A stretch of 53,314 nt of DNA, the filler included, from Limisphaerales bacterium (lineage in GTDB: Bacteria > Verrucomicrobiota > Verrucomicrobiia > Limisphaerales > SIBE01): NCBI GenBank assembly GCA_044225505.1. It is 2 parts of 2 records of this genome, joined end to end, with 100 filler letters (N's around TTAATTAATTAA, not from the genome) between each part and the next. Parts side by side here need not be neighbours in the genome. Positions count along the whole stretch, not along the records: positions 1 to 26,753 come from JBGAIN010000118.1; 1 more part is not named here. One strand, 5' to 3'. Below, one piece after another: positions 14,210 to 26,853 of this stretch; within the stretch, counting starts at the first letter, position 1; every line of letters begins with the position of its first letter. The notes beneath the pieces were generated by a model, which saw only the letters and a list, made by a program, of their open reading frames with translations, ran no database searches and was not told the DNA's origin. The position numbers and the translations under genes are program-made.

Positions 14210-15274
14210 ATGGCGTTATTCACTCAAACCGCTTCTAGCAAGAAGCGAATGCACATTGTGGCGATCGACATGGGCACTCGGACCACAAAGGCCGTCGCGC
14301 TCCAACGCCGTGGAACAGGGTTCGATCTGGTTCGATACACCATCCTGGACGCCCCGATTTACGAGAAGAGCATTTCGCCGGAATTGATTGGTGAACACCT
14401 CAAGACCGTGACGGAAGCGGTCGGTGCCAAAACCAAGCAAGTGAGTGTGGTGGTTGGTGTCAATGATTCATTGCTGCGTCACGCGGAAATGCCGCTCGTC
14501 CCGATCGACGACATGCGGTTGATGCTGAAGTTCAACAGCAAGAACTATCTCCAACAAGACCTGCCCGATCACGTTTTCGATTGTTATATCCTGCCGCCGC
14601 GCGCTGGGACGAAGCCTGCCGAAGCGATGAAGGCGAACCAAAAGTGCCGCGTGCTGGTGGGAGGCGCGAAGAAGCAGTTCATGGACAACCTGCAGTCGGC
14701 TTTGAAGGCGGCGGGTTTGGTTCCGGATCAAGTCGCGCCGAGTTTGATGGCGGCGGTGAATGCCTTCGAGTTGGCGCAACCAGAGACTTTTGCCAAGGAG
14801 GTCATAGCCTTGGTCGACATAGGATTTAAGAACTCCAGCATCAATATTTTGCTGGAGGGCGAGCTGATGTTAAGCCGCGTGGTTGCAATCGGCGGCGACA
14901 GGATTACGGCTGGCTTGGCCGAAGCCCTGAATATCAGTTACGCCGAAGCCGAAGGAATCAAGGTTGGGATGCCTGACCAAGTGCAATCAACCATGCTCCC
15001 CCTGCTGACACCGCTCGGCCGCGAGCTGCGAGCGTCCATCGATTTCTTCGAACATCAACAGGACAAGCCCGTCAGCCAGGTTTACATCTCTGGAGGATCT
15101 GCCCGATCGCAGTTCATCATCGAGACGCTGCAAAGTGAATTGATGGTGCCTTGCCAAGGCTGGAATCCACTTAGTTTCCTCAACGTGGCGCTTTCGCCGG
15201 ACCAACGGGGAGAGTTTGAGCAAGTCGCGCCGCAACTGGCCGTCGCTACCGGCGGGGCTGTGGCCGCATTCTAG
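14210..15274 (+). CDS. pilM: Type IV pilus assembly protein PilM (actin-like)
   Basis: AIDMGTRTTK, LVDIG, IGGDRITAGLA, ELRASIDFF, YISGGSA, PQLAVATG. Confidence 0.9.
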   Translation: MALFTQTASSKKRMHIVAIDMGTRTTKAVALQRRGTGFDLVRYTILDAPIYEKSISPELIGEHLKTVTEAVGAKTKQVSVVVGVNDSLLRHAEMPLVPIDDMRLMLKFNSKNYLQQDLPDHVFDCYILPPRAGTKPAEAMKANQKCRVLVGGAKKQFMDNLQSALKAAGLVPDQVAPSLMAAVNAFELAQPETFAKEVIALVDIGFKNSSINILLEGELMLSRVVAIGGDRITAGLAEALNISYAEAEGIKVGMPDQVQSTMLPLLTPLGRELRASIDFFEHQQDKPVSQVYISGGSARSQFIIETLQSELMVPCQGWNPLSFLNVALSPDQRGEFEQVAPQLAVATGGAVAAF

Positions 15275-15281
15275 CAAGAGT

Positions 15282-16169
15282 ATGCCTATTCGGATCAACT
15301 TACTGGCGGAACAACAAGCAGCGGAAGAGGCGCGTCGGCGGGACCCTGTCAAACGCGCGATCTGGGCCGGCGCCGCCCTGGCCGCTATGATGATTCTGTG
15401 GGCTGTCCTGCTGCAACTTCGACTCGCTTCCGCGCGTGCCGAATTGAGCCGCTACAGCAACCAGTTACAGGCCGTTGAAGAGAATTCCAAAGAGGCTCGG
15501 CTCAAATCGAATTCGGCCGGGCAGCTCGAGAGCCGCATTACCAATTTACAGCGGTACAGCACGAACCGCTTCTTCTGCGCGACCGCCCTGGACGCTATTC
15601 AGCAGGTCATGTCTGAGGACATTCGAGTGGTGCAGTTTCAAACGGTCCACTCTTACAGCACGAATTCCGAAAGTACTTACAAGACGAACATCGCCTTCCC
15701 AATTCAGAAAGTCCGAGCGTGGCAGTTCTGGAAGGGGCGATCGTCGCAACCGAATGTGCTCACGCTCGTTTCGAACCAGTTGGCGGTGATTACGAACAAA
15801 GTCGAGGCGCTCAAGGGGAGTGCGCTTCCGTTGATCACTCGCATCGAAGTCACCACCAACGGCAGCGTGGCCAACGCCAAGATCGAAGTCACCAAACCCG
15901 TCGCAGCGGTGGAACGTGTCCAGCTGACCATCAAAGCTCGGGACTATGCCAATCCTCCGGGCAAGCGCGTCGATGAATTCTCCAAAGCGATTGCCGCGCA
16001 TCCTTACTTCAACCAACGCCTGGTCCAAGCGGAGGGCGAGGGAATCCGACTCAGGGAGCGGGCGATTCAACCGGAGTTTGACCCGGGTGATTCGGTCTCA
16101 GCTTCGAAACCATTCGTTCCGTTCGTGATCGAGTGCCGGTACCGCGAAACTCTACGTGCCAATGAATAA
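15282..16169 (+). CDS. pilN: PilN-like protein, longer than usual
   Basis: N-terminal PilM-binding motif IRINLL, single TM, coiled coil; directly after pilM. Confidence 0.75.
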   Translation: MPIRINLLAEQQAAEEARRRDPVKRAIWAGAALAAMMILWAVLLQLRLASARAELSRYSNQLQAVEENSKEARLKSNSAGQLESRITNLQRYSTNRFFCATALDAIQQVMSEDIRVVQFQTVHSYSTNSESTYKTNIAFPIQKVRAWQFWKGRSSQPNVLTLVSNQLAVITNKVEALKGSALPLITRIEVTTNGSVANAKIEVTKPVAAVERVQLTIKARDYANPPGKRVDEFSKAIAAHPYFNQRLVQAEGEGIRLRERAIQPEFDPGDSVSASKPFVPFVIECRYRETLRANE

Positions 16170-16793
16170 GTTGCCCAAGGAAAAACGCGACAAACTGCTG
16201 CTGGTGGCCCTGGGGTTCTAGCGGCAATTTATCTGCTGGTCATTAGCGCCCAACAAGAGTCGTTGCAGGAATGCGCCGACAAGACTGAGGCCGCGAAGGA
16301 ACAACTCAACAAGGCTGAGCGTTGGTTGCGCATGGCGCCGACGATTGAAACTCGCCTGAGTGCTTACCGCAAGGAACTCGAAGCGAGGCAGGAGAACATG
16401 GCGCCGGTCGACAAGTTTAAGTGGTTTTACAATACCATGGAACGGTTTCTCGCCCAACACCAAGTAAAGCTCGTCGATATCACGCGCGAACCAGAGGTAG
16501 GCGACGCCGGGGTTCTCCCCAAATTTCCTTATCAAGCTGCCACTTTCGGAGTGAAGCTCAACGCTTACTTCCAGGATTTTGGCTCTTTCCTCGCGGAATT
16601 CGAAAATCAGTTTCCATTCATGCGGGTGCAAAATCTGGAACTGGAATCGGAAGTCGGCGGTCGCCTGGGAGTTACGGAGACGATCGACCAGGAGCGCAAG
16701 CCAGCGCCTGGCGAAGCTCGAACGCAGGCGTCTGAACGGCTTGCGATCACCATGCGAGTGGTCACCTTGGTCAAGCCCAACGGAATCCTTTAA
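16162..16793 (+). pseudogene. pilO: PilO-like protein, frameshifted near 16215
   Basis: MNKLPKEKRDKLLLVALG continues in another frame as VLAAIYLLVISAQQ...AYFQDFGSFLAEFENQFPFMRV (PilO/GspM-type motif). Probably an assembly error. Confidence 0.7.
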
Positions 16794-16800
16794 ACGCGTT

Positions 16801-17400
16801 ATGAAGCCTGTTCTCGCAAAGGTTGCAACTCTCAGAGGCGTCAGTTTGGGAATGATCAAGTCTCTTCACTCCGGGATGTGGATTACGGCCCTCGGCGCGG
16901 TCTTATTGGCCACGGGTTGCGGTTCCCCTCCAGCGCCAGGCAATGCCGCGGGCAACTCTCCCGCAGCACCCAAGGCTCCTGCGACCAGCGGAAGCCTGGC
17001 AACCGATGCCAAAGCGGCGGCCAATGTCCAAGCAGCTGTTCCCCGAGCGGTCTTTCACACGGGACCTCAAGCGGGACGTGATCCCTTCTTTCCTAACTCC
17101 ACGCGTGGAATGGCAAAGGCCACGCCGGAGAGCGCGCCCGTTCCGCAGGTACCGCTGGTCAGTCACATCAAACTTTTTGGGATCAGGCCTGGGACCGATC
17201 GTCCGATGGCCTTGATCAACCGGACACCCTTCGCTCCGGGGGAAGAGGGAGACGTGACCGTTGTCATTGGCAGTGAGTCGAACCGGCCTGAGATTCAGAA
17301 AGTCAATATTCGCTGCCTCGAGATTCGCCGCGACTCAGTCTTGATCAGCATCGCTGGAGAAGTCGGGGTGAAGGAACTGCGCATGGCCCAGGCGAAATGA
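16801..17400 (+). CDS. PilP/GspC-like lipoprotein
   Basis: Lipobox LATGC, Pro/Ala linker, GRDPFFP motif, beta domain (ALINR). Sits between pilO and the secretin. Start at 16801 or 16852. Confidence 0.7.
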   Translation: MKPVLAKVATLRGVSLGMIKSLHSGMWITALGAVLLATGCGSPPAPGNAAGNSPAAPKAPATSGSLATDAKAAANVQAAVPRAVFHTGPQAGRDPFFPNSTRGMAKATPESAPVPQVPLVSHIKLFGIRPGTDRPMALINRTPFAPGEEGDVTVVIGSESNRPEIQKVNIRCLEIRRDSVLISIAGEVGVKELRMAQAK

Positions 17401-17470: not shown

Positions 17471-19190
17471 ATGAATATGAAGCTCGCGTTTTCGCTCCTG
17501 TTCGGGCTTGCCCTATGTGGCCGGGTCGTCCCTTTCGCAGACCGATCCGCCGGTGGCAGCCCCCAACACGGCGGCTCCTGCGAATCCCGCGGAAAATCCG
17601 GCACCTGCGCCCGCAACCGCTCCCGTGACCGCGCCTGCCGATCCCGCGGGCGCCGCTCTTTCAACCGCACCTGGGACGGGCTCTCTTGGTGGATCCCGTC
17701 GCGACGGCCATGATTGTTCGCCGGAGGCGATCCCCGCCGGCTGGCATCACTTCGACGAACGACAACCGTGGACCCTTGACTCTGGAACAAGAGCTTCCTG
17801 CGGCGATTCAGTTTCTCGAGCGAATGGCCAACCTGAATATCCAGTTCGATCCGAGCTTGTTTTCACGAACAACATCCCCGGACCTGATGGGAAAGTGACG
17901 GCAGCGCCGGTGGTCTCACTGCGATGGGAGAATGTGACCGCGGAGGATGCGCTCCAGGAAGTGCTCGATAACTACGGTCTGATGCTGGTCGTGAACCCGA
18001 AGACGACCGTCGGACGGGTGACCCGGAAGCCAACCGTGCTGCCGCTGACCACGGCCATCGTGCAGCTGAAGTACAGCAGCCCCACCAACATCATGGAAGT
18101 GTTAAAGTCCACCTTCGTCGATCCCCGGAGCAAGGTAAGCGCGGATTTGCGAACCAGCCAGTTGGTAGTCGTGACTACAACGCAAGAAATGTATGCCGCG
18201 ACCAATTTAATCGCGGTGCTGGATACGCCGACCAAACAGGTTCTAATTGAAGCGCGAATGCTGGAAACCGCCAAGAGCCCGCGTTCGGTGAAGGGGATCG
18301 ATTGGTCGGGAACCTTGGAAGGGCAGAACTTCAGCTTTGGGAATGGAATCACTTCGGGCCAGACCACGACTCGGACGCCTGGAGACTCTTCGACCACGAC
18401 TTTGCCGAGCGGACGGACCATGACCACCAGCAGTGGCACGAGCTCGACGACAGAATTGCTCACCTCGATTGGGAGTGGTGGGATTAGCGCAAATACGCTG
18501 CGTGGCTTTTCGCCAAGCACAGCGTTCCTCAATGCGGATGGCGTGCACGCGGTCCTTTCGTTCTTGAACTCAGACAATGACACGGAAGTTGTCGCCACGC
18601 CTCGGGCTGTGACGGCCGATAACCAAACCGCGATCCTTTCGGTGACGCGCGCGTTTCCAATTTTCGAAGTCACACCGGGATCGGCCAACGTCGCCGCCGC
18701 GGCGCAAGTGAAATACACTAACCTGGGCACGATCTTGAAAGTAACGCCGCGCATCACGGCCAACAGCAATATCGCGTTGAAGGTGGTGCCTGAGGTGTCG
18801 AACATCGATTCCAAGGACCGTCAGATTATCAACGGGAATGTGAACGAGGCGAACGTCTATGCGATCCGTCGAATGGAAGCGGACGTGGTCATCCCAAGTG
18901 GCAATACTCTCGTCATGGGTGGCTTGATTAGCGACAACTCCAGCAAGTCCTACAATAAGGTTCCGATCCTCGGAGATCTGCCCGGAGTCGGCCTGGCTTT
19001 TCGTAAGGATTCCAAATCGCGCAACAAGGCGAATCTGATTATCTTTGTCACTCCGACGATCATTAATGATCAAGACTTTCAACCGACCGCATCGACCTTC
19101 CTGAGGACCCCGGTTCCCCCGCAGAACGACGTTCAGGAATCGGCCTGGGACAGCGGTAAACCCTACAAGTGGAACCGCTCCAAGAAATGA
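17471..19190 (+). CDS. Secretin (PilQ/GspD family); N-terminal part broken by at least 3 frameshifts
   Basis: LDTPTKQVLIEAR, GIDW, ATPRAVTADNQTA, LKVTPRI, TLVMGGLI, KVPILGDLPGVG, LIIFVTPTI. Signal peptide (17471 frame) and N-domains (17508 and 17686 frames) are spread over different frames. Confidence 0.9.
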
Positions 19191-19233
19191 CGTGGCTTAT
19201 GAGTTGCTCACTCGAAGGATCGACATTAGCGCT

Positions 19234-22200
19234 ATGAACACGCCCGCCAGAATGCGGAAGTCCTCGACGCATCGCCAGCTCTGCCCGAGCGGCGGCGCAC
19301 TCCTGGGCGCGTTGCTCGCCTGGTCGGCGTGGACGGTGGGCCTCCAAGCGGAGCCAACCGTTAAGACCCTCGGAGGTGGCCGGCTCACGGTGAATGGCCC
19401 GGATGCGGGCTTTTCTGACGGCGATATCTTGCAGGCGGCCCAGTTCCACAGTCCCTACGGCTGCGCCGTCGACACTACCGGCCGAATCTATGTGGCCGAT
19501 CGTGACAACGGAGCGCTCCGACGGCTCGACCCCGCCGCGAATCGGGCGCGAACGCTCCTCACTGGCCTCAAGGTGCCTGTCGCTGTCATCGTCGATCTGA
19601 CCAACTCGGTCTACGTCTTGACTCAGCAGGACGGCACCATCGTCAAGCTGCAACGCGGGACCACGAGCGTCCTGGCCACCGGGTTAATCGCTCCTTCCGC
19701 CATGACTTGGGATGGAGATGCTGCACTGTATGTTGCTCAGACCGCAGGCACCGTCGTCCGAGTGAGCCTGGCGGACGGAGCCGTTTCGAGTCCAATCATC
19801 ACTGGCTTGAATCAACCGAGCGGAATTGCCTACCTTGACAACGGTTTCGTCGCCGTCAGCGAGGCGGGTTCCAACCAAATCCGCATTTGGGATCCCCGAA
19901 ATGGTGCGCTGAAGTCTCGGGTCGGGACGGGCGTCGCCGGGTTTGCCGATGGGCCAGCCACCATCGCCCAGTTCAATCAGCCTCAGCATCTGGCCAAAGC
20001 ACCCGGTGGGAGCATGCTGGTGGCGGATCGCTTGAATCATCGAGTTCGCCTGATTGAAAGCGACGGTTTTGTCACGAGCCTTTACGGAGTTGATCCCACC
20101 CTGTGGGAGGGGCCGGCCTGCACGACGTGTGATCCAATCATCTTGCCAGGGTGGTTCGACGGTTCGGTCGAGTTCGCGGAAGCGCGCGAACCGGTCGGAG
20201 TGGCCGTAAGCAGCGATGGAAAGATTTACACCACGGAGGATTTCTATCATCTGGTGCGCGAAATCAGCGGTGCGAGCTTTGTCGATGGTGGTGGGTCCGG
20301 TGAAACCAACACTCTCTATGCGCCGGTGATCTCGCCGAACAGCGGCTATTTTCCGATGGGACAGATCATCCAGGTCACCAATCCCAATGTCAGCGCGCTA
20401 TTGCCTTCTGCGGTCTATTATACGACGGACGGAACCGAACCGACGACCAACAGCTTGAGAGTCGTTATGGACGGAAATGCAGGTTCAATTCTCTGGCAGG
20501 AAAAGCGCCGGGATCTGACTTCACTTCGGTTGATAGCGTTCGTGGGATCGAAGTCGAGTCCAATCACGAGCGGTCAATCTGTGGTCGCCAATGAAATTGG
20601 CATTTCGCAGAATGTCGCCGCTGGCATCGGGTCGACGGCGATTCTTCCGGTTGTGGTTAATCTCCGCACCAACGAACAGTTGCAGTCGCTGCAATATCGG
20701 CTGGAAGTCAGTCCCATTTCGTCCGGGACGCCAATGATTCCTGAGACTTTCGGGGCGATCTCCTATTCGACCAACGATTTCATCACGGTATACACCGCCG
20801 CGGATCCTAAGGGAGAAGCGAATTTCCGGGTTTTGCCATATAACTTCGATCAGACGCGCGGGGTGGCCGTCACGTTCATCGGGACCAACGCCAATCTCTC
20901 CGTGAAAGCGTTCGGCGTCGTGGGCATGATAACCGTTCCCATCCCACCATCCGCGCACGTCGGTGATCGATATAAAGTCTCACTGCTCAATCCGTCGGGA
21001 ACATCCGATGGTGGCGAGCAGCGGGTGGCCATAGCGGCGATGCCCGATCGGATTTTGGAGGTCCAGGCGGCGCATTATCTGGTTGGAGACTCGGCGAGCG
21101 CCATCTGGTACAACTCGGCTCAACTCGATGCCACGGGCGCACTTCGGCAGGGATTTGGAGATGGCATCCTGGATAACAGCGACGTGAACAACGTCTTCTC
21201 TGTGGCCTTGGGAATGCGGGTTCCCTATCCCCACACGGATCTCTTTGATGCGATGGACGCGTTCCCCGAGGACACGATTACAAGCGCCGGCGGCGATGGC
21301 CTGATTCGATTCCTCGACTGGCAAGTCATCCTCATGCGGTCTTTAGGCCTGGATCCGGCTCGCTGGGAGAGAGTTTGGGCGGACGGCGGGGTACGAATCA
21401 CTCGAGGGTCCAATAGCCCAGGAGCTCCCAACACTGCGGGAGTAAAGTTGACCGCGTTGCCGGGCGAAGTTTGGAGCCGACAAGTGGTACTCGCCGCACA
21501 ATCGTTTGAAGTTGTCCAACCAGGAGCGATTCTGGACGTCCCCGTCACTCTCGATGTTGCCGCGGGCTGTGAACTGGCGGGATTGGCGTTTCGCGCCATG
21601 GTTCGAGCGGATGGCGGCGCTCCGCTCTTGGACCGTCCGATTCAGTTTGTCCCAGCCGCGAGCATTCCTGCGCCGACCCAGAGCCTGGTGCCGAGCTATG
21701 ACACGGTCTTGTGCGGTTGGCCGCTGGTGCCGTCGTCCTCATTCGATCCGACCTTACGCGGCAAAGTGTTGCTGGGGTACATCCGCGTGCCCGTGCCTTG
21801 GCGCTCGACGCAGGGACAGACCTATACCGTTCATTTCTCGAATGCGGATGGATCACCCGACATCCAGACCCAGTATGAATTTGAAACCAAGTCCGGCACG
21901 CTCTGGATCTTGAGCTATGCGGATAAACCAGCGGACGTAAGTTCGGACGAGTGGAAGCAGCACTTTTTTGGGAGTGCCTTGAGTGACACGGCGATCGATA
22001 GCGCCGATCCCGATCACGACGGCACGCCGAACTACCTCGAATATTTGTCCGGCACCGACCCGACCGATCCACAATCGTTCCTTCGCCTGAATGCTGCTCC
22101 GCTCGACGCCCAGGGCAAGAATGTCGTGCTCAGTTGGCTGAGTGCGCCCGGGAAGACTTACCAGATCGAGATGGCGACTAGTTTGTTGGGCAAAGACTGG

Positions 22201-22305
22201 ACCGTCGTCGCCAACGGCTTGATCGGGACGGGCCGGTCCCAGCAATGGATTCACTCTATGAACACCAATAACAACAGCTTTTATCGAATTCGTCTGCAAC
22301 CCTAA
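19234..22305 (+). CDS. Large exported protein: NHL repeats - CHB_HEX_C-like - cohesin-like - dockerin-like - cohesin-like - C-terminal domain (paralog 1)
   Basis: Signal peptide ..VGLQA/EP; NHL repeats (FHSPYGCAVD..YVAD, FNQP..VADRLNHRVR); YYTTDGTEP; GDGILDNSD...DAFP..GGDGLIRFLD; DPDHDGTPNYLEYLSGTDP; terminal FYRIRLQP. Confidence 0.85.
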   Translation: MNTPARMRKSSTHRQLCPSGGALLGALLAWSAWTVGLQAEPTVKTLGGGRLTVNGPDAGFSDGDILQAAQFHSPYGCAVDTTGRIYVADRDNGALRRLDPAANRARTLLTGLKVPVAVIVDLTNSVYVLTQQDGTIVKLQRGTTSVLATGLIAPSAMTWDGDAALYVAQTAGTVVRVSLADGAVSSPIITGLNQPSGIAYLDNGFVAVSEAGSNQIRIWDPRNGALKSRVGTGVAGFADGPATIAQFNQPQHLAKAPGGSMLVADRLNHRVRLIESDGFVTSLYGVDPTLWEGPACTTCDPIILPGWFDGSVEFAEAREPVGVAVSSDGKIYTTEDFYHLVREISGASFVDGGGSGETNTLYAPVISPNSGYFPMGQIIQVTNPNVSALLPSAVYYTTDGTEPTTNSLRVVMDGNAGSILWQEKRRDLTSLRLIAFVGSKSSPITSGQSVVANEIGISQNVAAGIGSTAILPVVVNLRTNEQLQSLQYRLEVSPISSGTPMIPETFGAISYSTNDFITVYTAADPKGEANFRVLPYNFDQTRGVAVTFIGTNANLSVKAFGVVGMITVPIPPSAHVGDRYKVSLLNPSGTSDGGEQRVAIAAMPDRILEVQAAHYLVGDSASAIWYNSAQLDATGALRQGFGDGILDNSDVNNVFSVALGMRVPYPHTDLFDAMDAFPEDTITSAGGDGLIRFLDWQVILMRSLGLDPARWERVWADGGVRITRGSNSPGAPNTAGVKLTALPGEVWSRQVVLAAQSFEVVQPGAILDVPVTLDVAAGCELAGLAFRAMVRADGGAPLLDRPIQFVPAASIPAPTQSLVPSYDTVLCGWPLVPSSSFDPTLRGKVLLGYIRVPVPWRSTQGQTYTVHFSNADGSPDIQTQYEFETKSGTLWILSYADKPADVSSDEWKQHFFGSALSDTAIDSADPDHDGTPNYLEYLSGTDPTDPQSFLRLNAAPLDAQGKNVVLSWLSAPGKTYQIEMATSLLGKDWTVVANGLIGTGRSQQWIHSMNTNNNSFYRIRLQP

Positions 22306-22422
22306 ACATCACTCACCACTATGAACAATGCCTCAAGTCTACGCTCGTCCCGTGAGTCCGGGCGCCGGGTGCAGACGTTGCCTAGTCCGCCTCCTATCAC
22401 TGAACTTATTAACCCCAATGCT

Positions 22423-25400
22423 ATGAAAAAAACCTGGTGCGTACTGATCGCCCTGATGTTTGCGCTCGGGGCGGTTGCTCAGCCCGCGCTGCAAACACTC
22501 GTCTCCTCTGGCCTATCCGAACCGTACGGTGTGGCCGTTGATGCCAAAAACAACATCTACATCACCGACAGCGTCAACAACCGGATTGCCAAGTACAATC
22601 CGAACTCCGGCTCTTTGACCAACCTGGCCGGTGTGCTCGGTGAACCCGGCAATAATGACGGGCCCGGGCCGTTCGCTCACTTCTCGAGCCCCCAAGGGAT
22701 TGTTTACGCCCGCGGCGGTCTGGTGGTGGCGGATTCCGGAAATCACCTGATTCGGTTTGTGACCTTGGCCGGAGCAGTGTCGACCCTGGCGGGCAGCACC
22801 GCGGGAGTCCAAGACGGCGTGGGCGCAGCAGCCCAGTTTAACGCGCCCGCCGGATTGGCTGCCGACGCGGCCGGGAACATCTATGTGGCCGACCTCTTGA
22901 ACAACCGCATCCGCAAAATCGATCTCGCCAACAAGGTGACGACAATCGCCTCCGGGTTGTCACGCCCATCCGGCGTGAGCATCGACAAGGCGAAGAACCA
23001 AATCTACGTGGCGGACACGGGGACGCACTCGATCCGGGTGATCCAGCCGGACGGCACCGTTACTCTCTTCGCGGGAAGCGGTTCGCCTTTCATCAGCGGC
23101 CTAAAAGAGTCCCTGATTGCGACGAACGCTCTCTTCAATGCGCCTCGCGGACTCGTTTGGGTCGGAGGCACGACCGGATTGCTCGTGAGCGATACGGGAA
23201 ACCACCGCATTCGTCGGATCTTCTCCAACACGAACTTTAACACCTTCTCCACGGAAAGCTTCGTCAGCTCGACATTGATCTCTCCAGTCGGCATGTCGAT
23301 TGACGAAAACGGCAATTTCCCGCTCGTCGACCTTGCGGCGAATGCTCTGATCAGTTTGCAGGTGACGGCGCCCCAAGCCCCTGTTAGTAACCCGAAGATC
23401 GGGATTGTGGTGCTGAACACCAACTCGTTTGGCGATCTCGTCACGGAACTGATCCCTATCGTCAATTCAACGTTTAATAACGACGTCAACGTGGCGATCC
23501 TGGCGGAGGACGGCACCGAGACATTCTACACGCTGAACTCAGCGGCTGATTTTCCGGAGGATGCAACGAGCCGAAATACGCCCGCACGTTATGTGAACGG
23601 CCTGCTGGAATGGACGAATTCAATCGTCGTGCCGAGCGAAGATGGCTCTAATGTCCTGGTCCGCGCCATCAGCACGCAGGACGGTCGTCGTCCGAGTGAA
23701 GTGGTGTCCGCTCGATTCCAGTTCAAGGTTGCCAATCCGATTATCAATGGAAAGAATCCGGGTAACTTCACTGTCTCCGACAACACGGACAACGCCGAGA
23801 TCTGGTATTCGACCGATGGGTCCGTGCCGACGAACAGCGCGCCGTCTCAACTCTATCTGCCGGGCAGTCACTTGAACATTGTCAACGGCACGAATAACGT
23901 GCTGTTCACAGCTCGCGCCTTCAAGCGTGGCTATACCCCGAGCACCGAGGTCAGCAAAACCTTCCTGTTCACCGATCTGGAAACCAGCGTCATTGGCGTG
24001 ACTCGCGATTACACCGCGGGCATCGGTTCGACCATCGTGGTCCCGGTCGAGGTGCGCGTGGCCGGTGCGGATGCGCTTCGGTCCTTGCAGTTCCGCGTCG
24101 AAGTGACCGCGAATAATGGCGCTCCGCCGATCTCGGCACAATTCCGCAGTCTGCCGTTTAGCACGAACGACTTCGTCTTCGTTCCCGCGCCCAGCACAAA
24201 CCCGCCGATCTCTTCGGTCTACAGCTCCAATAACGTGACCGGACTTAGTATCGCGTATATCGGCCAAAGTTCTGGTTTGGAGTTGCGCGAGACAGCAACG
24301 GCGGCACTCTTGGCGGTGCCGATCCCACCGGACGCTCTCGAAGGTCAGACTTACACCATCTCGCTGGTGCAGCCCTCTGGGACAGCGGACGCTGGGCAAT
24401 CGCCCGTGCCCCTGACCGTGCTGGCAAATCGCACGATCACCGTGTCTAACGTCAGCTATCTGGTCGGCGACAGCGCCGTGAGCTCCTGGTACAACGCCGG
24501 TGATTTCGGCAATGAAGACCTGGCGAACAATGACGTTAACAACGCCTTCCACGTCTCCCTGGGGTTATACAATCTCTTCCCGTTCACGGATCTGTTCGAT
24601 TCCATGGACGCGTTTCCGCCCGATTCGACCACGACTGTGGGTGGTGACGGCCAAATCCGCTTCCTCGATTGGCAGCTGATCCTTCGACGGTCCTTGCGCT
24701 TAAGCAGTCCGAACTGGCAGCGTTCCTGGTCGGTCGGCGGCCTCCGCGCCCCTGGCAGTGCGACCCTCAGCGGCTCGCCCGATACCGCAGGGCAGAAGCT
24801 CGTTGCACCAGCTCCAGGCGCCGTTTGGGTGCGCGAAGCGTCGTTCCTCGCCTCCGCTGTGGAAAATGCGCAGCCCGGTGAAACCGTTAAAGTTCCCCTC
24901 TACGTCAAGGTTGAGGAAGGTTCCTCCCTCTCTGGTTTGCAGTTCCTTGCTCGCGTCACGGCGTCTGACCGTGCTCCCGACCTGACCAGTCCGGCCGTGT
25001 TTGTCCCGGCGGACGGAACGCCCGTGGGCCGCAGTGCGGATGGATTAGCTCCCAACCAAGTGGCTTATGCCTGGGATCTCGGTTCATTCAACCCGGCCCT
25101 GCAAGGTAAAGTGTTGCTCGGTGATGTGGTCTTCACGATCCCTGCGACCGCTAAACCCGGTCAGTCTTATCGCGTCCGTTTCGGCAATGCGGACGGCGCT
25201 CCCAACGAAAATACACAATACGAGTTCGAATCGTTCTCCGCTCGCGTCTGGGTGAGTGTTCCCGCCACGGGCCCGCAAGAGATCATCTCGGACGAGTGGA
25301 AGATCAAGTTCTTTGGAACCGTCGACAATGTGGACGCAGCACCGAACGCTGATCCTGACAAAGACGGCGCGCCCAACTGGAAAGAATACCTGGCGGGCAC

Positions 25401-25656
25401 CGATCCGATCAAGGCCGACTCGCACCTGCACCTGCGTGCTCCTGAGCAGAAAGTGAAGAATGGCAAGAAGCAATTGGCCTTACGCTGGCTGAGTGCACCT
25501 TCCAAGCACTACGTCATCGAAACCACCACCGACCTGATCAACGGGCCGTGGACAGTCGTCGCGACTGGAATCGTGGGTGACGGCAATCTGAAGGAGTACC
25601 TGCAAGCCACCCCTGGCCAAGGTCCTCAGTACTACCGAGTGCGGCTGCAAGACTAA
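22423..25656 (+). CDS. Large exported NHL / CHB_HEX_C-like x2 / cohesin-dockerin-cohesin protein (paralog 2)
   Basis: Signal peptide MKKTWCVLIALMFALGAVA/Q. Same domain order as paralog 1, with shared strings AGIGST, STNDF, PSGT, YLVGDSA, GGDGxIRFLDWQ, NADG, SDEWK, WLSAP. Confidence 0.87.
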   Translation: MKKTWCVLIALMFALGAVAQPALQTLVSSGLSEPYGVAVDAKNNIYITDSVNNRIAKYNPNSGSLTNLAGVLGEPGNNDGPGPFAHFSSPQGIVYARGGLVVADSGNHLIRFVTLAGAVSTLAGSTAGVQDGVGAAAQFNAPAGLAADAAGNIYVADLLNNRIRKIDLANKVTTIASGLSRPSGVSIDKAKNQIYVADTGTHSIRVIQPDGTVTLFAGSGSPFISGLKESLIATNALFNAPRGLVWVGGTTGLLVSDTGNHRIRRIFSNTNFNTFSTESFVSSTLISPVGMSIDENGNFPLVDLAANALISLQVTAPQAPVSNPKIGIVVLNTNSFGDLVTELIPIVNSTFNNDVNVAILAEDGTETFYTLNSAADFPEDATSRNTPARYVNGLLEWTNSIVVPSEDGSNVLVRAISTQDGRRPSEVVSARFQFKVANPIINGKNPGNFTVSDNTDNAEIWYSTDGSVPTNSAPSQLYLPGSHLNIVNGTNNVLFTARAFKRGYTPSTEVSKTFLFTDLETSVIGVTRDYTAGIGSTIVVPVEVRVAGADALRSLQFRVEVTANNGAPPISAQFRSLPFSTNDFVFVPAPSTNPPISSVYSSNNVTGLSIAYIGQSSGLELRETATAALLAVPIPPDALEGQTYTISLVQPSGTADAGQSPVPLTVLANRTITVSNVSYLVGDSAVSSWYNAGDFGNEDLANNDVNNAFHVSLGLYNLFPFTDLFDSMDAFPPDSTTTVGGDGQIRFLDWQLILRRSLRLSSPNWQRSWSVGGLRAPGSATLSGSPDTAGQKLVAPAPGAVWVREASFLASAVENAQPGETVKVPLYVKVEEGSSLSGLQFLARVTASDRAPDLTSPAVFVPADGTPVGRSADGLAPNQVAYAWDLGSFNPALQGKVLLGDVVFTIPATAKPGQSYRVRFGNADGAPNENTQYEFESFSARVWVSVPATGPQEIISDEWKIKFFGTVDNVDAAPNADPDKDGAPNWKEYLAGTDPIKADSHLHLRAPEQKVKNGKKQLALRWLSAPSKHYVIETTTDLINGPWTVVATGIVGDGNLKEYLQATPGQGPQYYRVRLQD

Positions 25657-25713: not shown

Positions 25714-25813
25714 ACCTCTCTGTCCGGTCACTTTCTAAACTCGCGCAATGAAAAATCCGACCCTGCTTCTGTTGCCGGTGCATTCATCCTGCGCGTCTCG
25801 TCTTCGTAGCGTC

Positions 25814-26753
25814 ATGAACGAATCTGTCCCTTTCTCCGATTGCTGCCTGTCCAGCGGAAGTCTTCTGCGCCGATGGACCAAGAGTGTCCTCGCGTTGGCC
25901 GCAGGTCTGTGGATGACCAACAGCCAGGCTCAGACCGTCGATACGGTGCTGACCAACCGGTTGGCGGAACCGTACAACGTTGTGATTGAAGGAGGAACCT
26001 ATTTCATTAGCGACAGCGGCAACGATCGCATTATCCGCTTTGTCCCGGACAGCGGAGCATTCTCGACGCTGGCCGGGTTTGCCGGGCGCCCTGGATCCAC
26101 CGATGGTAAAGGCGTCTTTGCTCGTTTCTTTAGTCCACGTGGGCTTGTCTCTGTTCCGGCTCGAAATGGCTTGGTCGTCTCAGACTATGCCAACCATACA
26201 CTCCGATTGGTGAAGCTGGACGGCACCGTCACGACGCTCGTCGGAACGCCTGGCCAGGCTGGATTCGACGCTACTCACTTTAATTTCCCTTCCGCCCTCG
26301 CTACCGACACCAATGGGAACGTTTATATTTCCGACACTAAGAATAACGCGATTCGCAAACTTGATCTAGCAGGCAACTTGTCCACGGTCGCCACGGGTTT
26401 TAGCGAACCAGACGGAATCGCGGTGGGCGACAACGGCGACCTCTGGATTGCCGATAGTCGCAATTATACCATCAAACGACGCCGGGCCAACGGCACGGTG
26501 GAGTTGATCGCGGGGATTCCCGGCCAGGCTGGGGCTCTCGATTCGATCTTTTCCAACGAAACCCTTTTCAATAACCCAAGCGCGCTGCTTTGGTTGGGGG
26601 GAGCGTCCGGGTTGCTCGTCTCGGACTCGGGCAATCACGCGTTGCGCCGCATCTATTTTGATCCCGAAATCGGTGGGTATTCCGTCGAAACCTACGCGGG
26701 ATCTCCCACTCAGCCAGGCTTTGTTAATGGCCCCGTGCGCACGGCTAAGTTTA
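25814..26753 (+). CDS. NHL-repeat exported protein (paralog 3), truncated by the contig end
   Basis: Signal peptide ..TNSQA/Q. LAEPYNV, ARFFSPRGL and LLWLGGASGLLVSDSGNH align with paralog 2. Runs into the N gap. Confidence 0.82.
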
Positions 26754-26853
26754 NNNNNNNNNNNNNNNNNNNNNNNNNNNNNNNNNNNNNNNNNNNNTTA
26801 ATTAATTAANNNNNNNNNNNNNNNNNNNNNNNNNNNNNNNNNNNNNNNNNNNN
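26754..26853. other. Artificial contig-joining linker
   Basis: 44 N + TTAATTAATTAA (stops in all six frames) + 44 N. Confidence 0.95.

Follow-up and report, generated by a model that had tools for sequence, protein, structure and literature searches.

The window, meaning the whole 53,314-nucleotide stretch of DNA analysed, contained a pilMNOPQ-type operon with three paralogous genes after it on the same strand (Table 1). The PilM-like protein and the secretin scored above the Pfam cut-offs, and the N, O and P assignments were weak or positional. The real start of the PilN-like gene is probably downstream of the call at 15216. The PilP-like protein matched no family in Pfam or NCBIfam; it is likely a lipoprotein with its real start after the ORF-called one. 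The operon lacked genes for an ATPase, a platform protein and a pilin, and 16 T2SSE matches, six secretin matches and three PilM loci were counted genome-wide. Scans for promoters and terminators stayed at chance level.

Table 1. Genes and protein features of the locus (positions in the window; P2 residue numbers in brackets).
Feature	Position	Strand	Basis or remark
PilM-like protein, operon gene 1	14210..15274	+	Pfam PilM_2, E 2.5e-26; TIGR01175, E 2.8e-34, below its cut-off
PilN-like protein	15216..16169	+	named by position, which is conserved across loci; weak match to C-terminal part of Amuc_1101 family, E 7e-6
PilO/GspM-like protein	16263..16793	+	T2SSM_b, E 0.0024; GspM, E 4.7e-5
PilP-like protein	16579..17400	+	name inferred; position after pilO and before the secretin gene conserved in many loci
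Secretin (PilQ/GspD family)	17508..19190	+	Pfam Secretin, E 4e-42; Secretin_N; weak STN
P1, type A paralog	19192..22305	+	signal-peptide-like N-terminus, NHL propeller, Ig-like spacer, Coh1-Doc-Coh2, acidic loop-helix pair, C-terminal tail domain
P1 cohesin 1 (Coh1)	20584..21069	+	alignment to P2 Coh1
P1 loop-expanded dockerin (Doc) and subsequent hairpin	21070..21405	+	motifs, sequence alignment
P1 cohesin 2 (Coh2)	21466..21933	+	sequence alignment
P2, type A paralog	22321..25656	+	architecture as P1
P2 cohesin 1 (554-710)	23980..24450	+	fold, Z 14.6; co-evolution
P2 dockerin (711-812)	24451..24756	+	fold, complex model, co-evolution
P2 flexible linker (816-835)	24766..24825	+	model residues 268-276, pLDDT<50
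P2 cohesin 2 (836-980)	24826..25260	+	fold, Z 13.5; complex model
Acidic loop-helix pair	25285..25413	+	resembles TSP3_bac/EF-hand calcium loops, seen in sequence
C-terminal tail domain	25426..25653	+	common to many exported proteins of the genome
Third paralog, type B, N-terminal part (NHL propeller)	25748..26753	+	ended by assembly gap

P2 probably starts at the ATG at 22423, after which a signal-peptide-like stretch can be read. The cassette of the third paralog was located at G000:C70:1-2481, as the two type B pieces aligned at 65% to separate stretches (25-355 and 403-1228) of a single relative of 1232 residues. Three of three RNA runs, each from a different study, gave short contigs (99%) on P1 and P2; DNA carry-over in these runs was uncontrolled, hence they are no evidence of transcription.

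The pilMNOPQ operon of type IVa pili carries alignment-complex genes and the secretin gene, and the pili have accessory adhesins such as PilY1. The present operon resembled it in combining alignment-complex and secretin genes without a pilin or ATPase, and in the linkage of large exported propeller proteins to the machine. Unlike in PilY1, the propeller of P1 and P2 was N-terminal and of NHL type, and was followed by a cohesin-dockerin-cohesin cassette; neither protein matched a PilY1 family in Pfam or NCBIfam.

Among loci with at least 800 bp of upstream DNA, the secretin gene lay immediately 5′ of the cassette genes in 53 of 54 from genomes and 43 of 46 from metagenomes. The arrangement, pilM-N-O-P-secretin and then cassette genes of two subfamilies (A and B), belonged to one Verrucomicrobiota order, with a constant order of secretin, A (1-3 copies) and B (AB or AAB in 97/140 loci). 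This constant link to the pilMNOP-secretin operon, like the third paralog, goes beyond the original prediction. The family comprised 1127 clusters at 50% identity. Since the cassette was found in 76 of 201 genomes of the order and a secretin orthologue in 128, the machine can do without the cassette. In 20 secretin loci from cassette-lacking genomes, one of them cut off by a contig end, no cohesin substitute lay 3′ of the secretin gene. The literature searched, mainly openly accessible main texts, yielded no description of the family or its mechanism.

The original prediction placed a cohesin-dockerin-cohesin cassette inside single polypeptides, with an acidic module at 21076-21355 (P1 629-722) and 24457-24702 (P2 713-794). 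These coordinates were exact, and all quoted motifs were located: P1 had those of the dockerin and P2 that of the cohesin. In the Pfam check that it proposed, full-length P1 and P2 matched neither cohesin nor dockerin in Pfam or NCBIfam, even at E≤1, and among 26 family members Cohesin (PF00963) was matched weakly by six per domain (best E 0.011 and 0.00043) and Dockerin_1 by one (E 0.14). Given the silence on full-length proteins, the assignment needed profiles and folds.

An AlphaFold model of P2 554-986 had a pLDDT of 93.9 and a pTM of 0.89. In fold searches with this model, Coh1 matched 4uyp_A (Z 14.6, rmsd 2.3, 136 aligned) and Coh2 matched 2vo8_A (Z 13.5, rmsd 2.6, 133 aligned). Both paralogs carry the cassette, and the beta domains were nine-stranded jelly-rolls with cohesin entries in all of the first 19 rows of the fold search. 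Other sandwiches appeared from Z 10.1, ruling out the CBM or generic Ig identity that had been named as a possible refutation. The best solved structures for the family profiles were also cohesins, 4uyp_A for Coh1 (E 2e-4) and 10uv_A for Coh2 (E 3.6e-4).

When the middle module was folded by itself (pLDDT 94.8), it had three helices and the duplicated loop-helix fold of dockerins, and 16 of 17 matches at Z≥2 were dockerin-bearing chains, the best being 2ccl_B (Z 7.7, rmsd 1.7, 62 aligned), in agreement with the dockerin-like module foreseen. With Foldseek on the dockerin alone, dockerins ranked top at a non-significant E of 0.62, and the dockerin family profile found no dockerin among PDB sequences. 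Both calcium loops of the P2 dockerin carried inserts. They departed from canonical 12-residue loops: in type A, Asp was kept at positions 1 and 12 (98-99%), position 3 was replaced by inserts, and repeat 2 had Arg at loop position 9. No catalytic CAZyme domain was detected by Pfam in P1, P2 and six other cassette proteins and the operon neighbours were pil genes, so the statement that this is not a cellulosome held.

To the Coh1-Doc part of P2, Coh2 was docked in a complex model on dockerin repeat 2 with a score of 0.82 (best control 0.00); the score mark was attained by 116/157 solved pairs and 2/215 mismatched pairs. Runs agreed in at least 97% of contacts with a partner pLDDT of at least 88, and the contacts listed on the Coh1-Doc chain were all dockerin residues and none in Coh1. 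This pass may reflect likeness to solved complexes, since the partners are the two halves of a single protein and also form a textbook pair. The conserved face of Coh1 was S588/Q590/S686/T688/S694, and the predicted Coh2 face was G872/Q874/A917/D958/G959/A960/Q966; the top-residue frequencies of the two faces were 0.70 and 0.66. Dockerin contact would lie at the cohesin 8-3-6-5 face, as the complex model predicts for Coh2 and co-evolution suggests for both. On the dockerin, the repeat-1 site comprised N736/N737/S791/L792 and the repeat-2 site R780/F781/L782/Q785/S746/L747, with F743, H744, L788 and R789 common to both.

Co-evolution was scored on the 25 contacts of the complex model together with their counterparts mapped by symmetry; the model contacts and type A co-evolution use a common alignment, and the type B and repeat 1 × Coh1 sets are independent of the model. 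Mean z values were 1.44 (type A) and 1.32 (type B) for repeat 1 × Coh1, and 0.81 and 1.05 for repeat 2 × Coh2, as against -0.09, 0.12, -0.26 and 0.21 for the crossed pairings. Matched pairings exceeded 5000/5000 segment-shift nulls in both subfamilies (crossed, p 0.11-0.90). Repeat 1 × Coh1 lay above both crossed sets in 8/8 random halves; type A repeat 2 × Coh2 was weak in two halves (0.26 and 0.30) and, in a separate comparison, hardly above shifted registers. Contrary to a clean split, a set-level test of repeat 2 × Coh1 gave p 0.025, and the pairs A645-F765 (z 8.3) and L655-F781 (z 5.5) fitted imperfectly.

Positions 10/11 of repeats 1 and 2 read N,N(S/A) versus F,L in type A and N,N versus V,D in type B. 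A symmetric dual-binding dockerin (type I style) was ruled out, as the repeats differ at these positions and co-evolve with different cohesins. Coh1 co-evolved with a front patch of the dockerin (V619-S721, rank 2 overall; Q590-S791; S694-N737) and with a separate back patch (I568-G806, L663-F753, A665-F755). Its conserved face would thus be the acceptor for the dockerin of a neighbour molecule, and its back and lower end would pack against its own dockerin. Between the subfamilies, profile overlap was 0.49 at the repeat 1/Coh1 interface and 0.15 at repeat 2/Coh2, with equal conservation within families; a common repeat 1/Coh1 and a private repeat 2/Coh2 are what one would predict for a common link combined with a private cap. 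The hetero-polymerisation originally proposed gained no co-evolution support from paired A-B alignments (66 pairs, effective 50), an underpowered comparison in which 2/4 positive controls also failed. The junction between Coh1 and the dockerin was 4-5 residues in 275/275 type A rows measured, and the Coh2 linker was 15-29 residues in 254/255.

We hold it about evenly probable that a P1/P2-type protein is an exported self-capped subunit linking head-to-tail and associated with a secretin machine of the type IV filament kind. The folds, the operon linkage and the two specific pairings are computed, and binding itself is predicted. Coh1 and the dockerin would form one rigid unit, as the model and co-evolution suggest, and the single binding face of the dockerin would have had its ancestral two-way symmetry split into two specific fits. 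In the repeat 2 orientation the dockerin would bind Coh2, which is on a flexible linker and reachable in the same chain; in the opposite, repeat 1 orientation it would bind Coh1 of another molecule. The latter contact is placed between molecules because Coh1, about four residues from the back of the dockerin, should be unable to reach its own dockerin, judging from the topology of cohesins, the length of the linker and the two patches. Because the central residues are common to both sites, the two fits should compete, and Coh1 and Coh2 would exclude each other on the dockerin. A monomer closed by its own Coh2 would, on cap release, be linked head-to-tail via Coh1 into a chain, a ring or, at the least, a dimer on the secretin-linked cell surface. 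The NHL propellers would face outward as likely adhesive heads. We infer calcium dependence and export through the adjoining secretin, as well as the assembly shape and the trigger.

In chaperone-usher pili and self-complemented pilus subunits, a capped monomer polymerises head-to-tail as its cap is swapped for a neighbour. The analogy is in mode only; no fold or gene is in common, and the swap here would be domain-for-domain, not strand-for-strand. A fuller version, which we put forward tentatively and regard as somewhat doubtful, is a new design of secretin-associated Gram-negative surface polymer, in which the dockerins of Coh2-capped monomers turn 180 degrees to a neighbour's Coh1 to build a filament or a ring at the secretin, paralogs being mixed via the common repeat 1/Coh1 code and release perhaps being triggered via the C-terminal tail in export.

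It is rather unlikely that the dockerin holds its own Coh2 and a neighbour's Coh1 at once, Coh2 then being the brace of a small fixed oligomer such as a secretin collar rather than a removable cap. Both pairings are kept in both subfamilies, the loop inserts widen the dockerin surface and the gene order is constant, all in keeping with such a clamp; the four residues common to both sites speak against it, as do known dual-mode dockerins, which in the account available from PMC12484212 bind either way round on a symmetric surface, the two orientations differing by 180 degrees.

Branched polymerisation, which the original prediction derived from two acceptors and one donor per subunit, would have each cohesin take up dockerins from other molecules in a tree-like mesh. 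The conservation of both cohesin faces, and their co-evolution with the dockerin, would suit it, co-evolution being blind to within- versus between-chain contact, and the complex model passed with Coh2 as a separate chain. But Coh2 is 15-29 flexible residues away from its own dockerin and the single-chain model is compact, so within-chain binding should win, and the Coh2 interface is private to each subfamily; we consider the mesh unlikely. Intermolecular binding stays likely, but the acceptors are not interchangeable, as each is linked by co-evolution to a separate dockerin orientation. This non-equivalence and the reach of Coh2 to its own dockerin favour the capped chain or ring over free branching. 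Some branching of the assembly may occur, and a Coh2 freed within a chain could capture more monomers.

Coh2 might instead close the dockerin permanently while Coh1 recruits other exported proteins by their dockerins, for instance the giant dockerin proteins of this genome (Pfam gives 10 dockerin matches, mostly within open frames 1500-12700 residues long). Conservation of the Coh1 face across subfamilies would fit such an adaptor or anchor, but Coh1 co-evolves specifically with the repeat 1 of its own family in two separate alignments, which a foreign partner would not yield, making this quite improbable. Very improbable is a closed module with all contacts intramolecular, serving as no more than a stiff spacer stabilised by calcium, or as a mechanical latch, within an adhesin stalk. 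The high pTM of the monomer model and the recurrence of a looser, more canonical cassette in unrelated proteins are in its favour. Against it, opposite surfaces of the Coh1 sandwich co-evolve with opposite patches of the dockerin, and the complex model has no Coh1 residue near Coh2, although two cohesins sharing one dockerin face should bring some there.

The self-capped chain has partial counterparts in known systems. In the available part of PMC5141474, the Clostridium thermocellum type II X-dockerins of ScaA(CipA)/CipB have two cohesin sites of distinct specificity in opposite orientations, one polar-leaning and one hydrophobic-leaning. The likeness lies in two sites of distinct specificity on a dockerin braced by a fused neighbour module; unlike the X-dockerins, whose cohesins are on separate anchoring proteins in that account (PMC5141474), P1 and P2 have both cohesins in the dockerin's own chain, a cohesin as the brace, and no enzymes. 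As far as the accessible text of PMC4611034 and PMC12663171 goes, the cohesin and dockerin of Ruminococcus bromii Amy4/Sca1 bind each other and the protein aggregates unless the dockerin is removed. Both systems thus have a mutually recognising cohesin and dockerin in one chain, with binding shown for Amy4 and predicted for P1/P2; Amy4, as described there, is an amylase that has a single cohesin, without a built-in second cohesin or secretin link. Non-cellulosomal modules are also known from the Archaeoglobus fulgidus cohesin 2xdh (fold match, Z 13.4) and from ANME proteins with a dockerin and several cohesins in one chain, for which two-orientation specificity or an operon link is not described in the available part of PMC9012536. 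A comparison of profiles between the P1/P2-type cassette and the more canonical one on G000:C94 was non-significant (probability 0.5%, E 0.12) and so gave no support to a shared origin of the two cassette types.

Within one protein, the two dockerin orientations appear to be assigned different jobs, cap and link. If so, cohesin-dockerin chemistry would build structure at a secretin machine in a Verrucomicrobiota order that is widespread and mostly uncultured (cassette in 76/201 genomes sampled), and a single dockerin would offer two orthogonal cohesin-dockerin pairs usable in protein engineering.

Behind the cassette, the acidic loop-helix pair had a counterpart in the type B paralog, with a weak TSP3_bac match (E 0.0045). 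Atlas neighbours of the tail domain were without any Pfam family. A search with this domain gave 98 C-terminal matches, and 171 with one iteration; it is possibly a sorting signal.

Two complete paralogs and part of a third were found in the window, and the coordinates and motifs originally predicted for P1 and P2 were reproduced exactly on re-checking. Each cassette runs from a first cohesin (Coh1) through a two-repeat dockerin to a second cohesin (Coh2). P1 and P2 were 34% identical overall and 41% across the cassette, and the Pfam hits on them were limited to NHL repeats plus CHB_HEX_C/Fn3-like domains, none catalytic. The third gene resumed on contig C70, both pieces matching non-overlapping parts of one relative at 65%. 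The artificial join at 26754–26853 was a short spacer between two N runs, and DNA beyond 26853 was absent from contig C208.

Cassette genes of the window
Gene	Extent	Position
P1	complete paralog	19192–22305
P2	complete paralog	22321–25656
Third paralog	5′ part only	25748 to assembly gap at 26753

Profiles built from 26 family members gave solved cohesins as the top matches of both beta domains. AlphaFold modeling of P2 residues 554–986 from 150 rows (146 type A cores kept from 183 after de-replication, P1, P2 and two others) gave a pLDDT of 93.9 and a pTM of 0.89, with disorder limited to the linker before Coh2. A fold search with this model found cohesins for Coh1 (Z 14.6) and Coh2 (Z 13.5), and Foldseek agreed; for the isolated middle module, 16 of 17 fold matches were dockerins (best Z 7.7, rmsd 1.7, 62 residues). 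ESM Atlas neighbours were clusters bearing cohesins and dockerins. The dockerin calcium loops were atypical, with position 3 displaced by inserts and, in type A repeat 2, Arg at position 9. Profiles and fold searches thus bore out the predicted cohesin-dockerin-cohesin order in single chains, and the cassette is a real, conserved feature.

Immediately upstream of the cassette genes lay a run of pilM, three genes resembling pilN, pilO and pilP, and then a secretin gene. The secretin lay directly upstream in 13/15 relatives and, where at least 800 bp of upstream sequence was available (40 of 140 loci had too little), in 53/54 genome loci and 43/46 metagenome loci, two overlapping sets. The genes fell into two subfamilies, type A for P1 and P2 and type B for the third gene; their order was AB or AAB in 97 of the 140 loci, and B occurred without A in some genomes. 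Among 251 genomes across Verrucomicrobiia, all 16 matches fell within Limisphaerales; matching records were named mostly Verrucomicrobiota, Limisphaerales or Pedosphaera, and a few bore other names. Since 76 of 201 genomes of the order had the dockerin module and 128 a secretin orthologue, the cassette genes were an optional extension of the operon. One lineage (L041:152–9268, L127–L129) had pilM-N-O and cassette genes without pilP and secretin, and its type A gene was shortened (698 residues). The window's own genome (G000) contained several further secretin and PilM loci, and a 4328-residue open frame (C260:88457–101443) ended in a secretin domain.

Mean-field co-evolution was computed separately for type A (276 rows, effective 197) and type B (201 rows, effective 157; cores >640 residues or with X excluded), columns with >30% gaps being removed. 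The internal symmetry of the dockerin and the alignment of Coh2 to Coh1 served to turn the top 25 complex-model contacts into four sets. Repeat 1 with Coh1 had mean z values of 1.44 (A) and 1.32 (B), and repeat 2 with Coh2 had 0.81 (A) and 1.05 (B), above all 20000 random-pair draws and all 5000 segment-shift draws. The crossed sets gave −0.09 and 0.12 (A) and −0.26 and 0.21 (B), with p 0.11–0.90 against segment-shift draws; because the sequences are related, co-evolution p-values here overstate significance. Single pairs in line with repeat 1 and Coh1 were Q590-S791, S694-N737 and Q590-N736 in type A and T183-N245 and G118-F309 in type B, where V302-V399 and D303-L492 were the counterparts for Coh2. 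Against a clean pairing, A645-F765 (z 8.3) and L655-F781 fitted poorly, and the set-level test of repeat 2 with Coh1 gave p 0.025.

Two-chain folding of Coh1-dockerin with Coh2 scored 0.82 against 0.00 for the best control, a mark attained by 116/157 solved pairs and 2/215 mismatched pairs. Runs agreed in at least 97% of contacts, with partner pLDDT of at least 88; for a textbook pair formed by halves of one protein, such a pass may stem from likeness to solved complexes. The predicted complex had canonical geometry with repeat 2 leading, dockerin residues R780, F781, L782 and Q785, plus F743, S746 and L747, touching the conserved face of Coh2 (G872–Q874, A917–L920, D958–A960, Q966). The listed contacts were all dockerin-Coh2, with none between Coh1 and Coh2, and the type A co-evolution signal for repeat 2 with Coh2 was modest. 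The linker before Coh2 (15–29 residues in type A, 19–44 in type B) and the compact single-chain model suggest that Coh2 can fold back onto the dockerin of the same chain. F743, H744, L788 and R789 were common to both dockerin sites, so Coh1 and Coh2 should compete; a clamp, with two cohesins on the dockerin simultaneously, appears unlikely.

The Coh1-dockerin binding contact is probably between molecules. By the strand order of the model, combined with general cohesin topology, the Coh1 binding residues would lie at the sandwich end that holds the turn between strands 8 and 9, and strand 9 would lead to the far end. Strand 9 was separated from the dockerin by 4–5 residues in all 275 type A rows measured and in 169/199 type B rows (others up to 11). 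A second dockerin patch (W723, F753, F755, G806) co-evolved with the back sheet and lower loops of Coh1 (I568, V573, L663, A665). Because a single sandwich cannot use two opposing faces to grip a small domain from both sides, two Coh1 molecules would be needed, presumably one fused to the dockerin at its back and one from a neighbour at its front. The loop inserts of the dockerin appear to take part in each of these contacts: S721 paired with V619 of the Coh1 top loop, the second strongest pair overall, and W723 with the Coh1 back.

Interface overlap between types A and B was 0.49 for repeat 1/Coh1 and 0.15 for repeat 2/Coh2 (p 0.004; 20 positions each, equal within-family conservation, positions not independent), fitting a link common to the subfamilies and a private cap. 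A direct paired test for A-B cross-subfamily contacts, underpowered, was blank. In the most likely mechanism, to which we give about an even chance, the monomer would be exported closed, and loss of the Coh2 cap would free the dockerin to bind, the other way round, the Coh1 of a neighbour. Subunits would then join head-to-tail, whether as dimers, rings or chains, at or beyond the secretin, and their NHL propellers would face outward. A branched mesh, the polymerisation originally predicted, is quite unlikely, and use of the cassette as an adaptor for other dockerin proteins very unlikely. A purely internal module, opposed to a Coh1 contact between molecules, is the least probable. The proposed cap-and-link mechanism is specific and cheap to test.

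Type II X-dockerins of C. thermocellum have two sites of distinct specificity (PMC5141474), as proposed for the window dockerin; R. bromii Amy4 is a self-binding cohesin-dockerin protein (PMC4611034, PMC12663171), and ANME archaea carry a dockerin plus cohesins in one chain (PMC9012536), both resembling the cassette. Passages on Cloacimonadota scaffoldin-like proteins (PMC8542988), from a cellulosome survey (PMC11557425), and on truncated dockerins (PMC12270676) and dual-binding dockerins (PMC4728124, PMC5864761) gave no closer parallel. Neither a dockerin flanked by both its cognate cohesins nor a cohesin-dockerin link to a secretin operon was found in the main texts of the open literature.

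An unrelated G000 protein with delta-60-like and Ig repeats (L057:7401–11138, contig C94) contained a second cohesin-dockerin-cohesin cassette, more canonical and more symmetric than the window's and common to 18 proteins with varied N-termini; homology between the two cassettes was not significant. Giant open frames (6815–12706 residues) with canonical dockerin matches were located on C311, C65 and C139 (L004, L005, L007–L010).

P2 ended in a ~75-residue beta domain (25426–25653) common to 98–171 G000 open frames (median 675 residues), and many exported proteins ended in this tail. Its Atlas neighbours, all mostly Verrucomicrobiota, included no Pfam family. The tail resembles a sorting signal, with a role akin to that of the type IX C-terminal domain, and, located after Coh2, is a candidate handle. 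In two cassette-lacking genomes (L204:8010–11708, L206:1946–6604), the gene after the secretin encoded a large protein with the same tail and, as read from its sequence, a metalloprotease-like motif. A second PilM-secretin operon of G000 (L199:914–18312, contig C78), Amuc_1098–1101-like in gene sizes and order, was followed by large proteins with this tail, one of them a subtilase.
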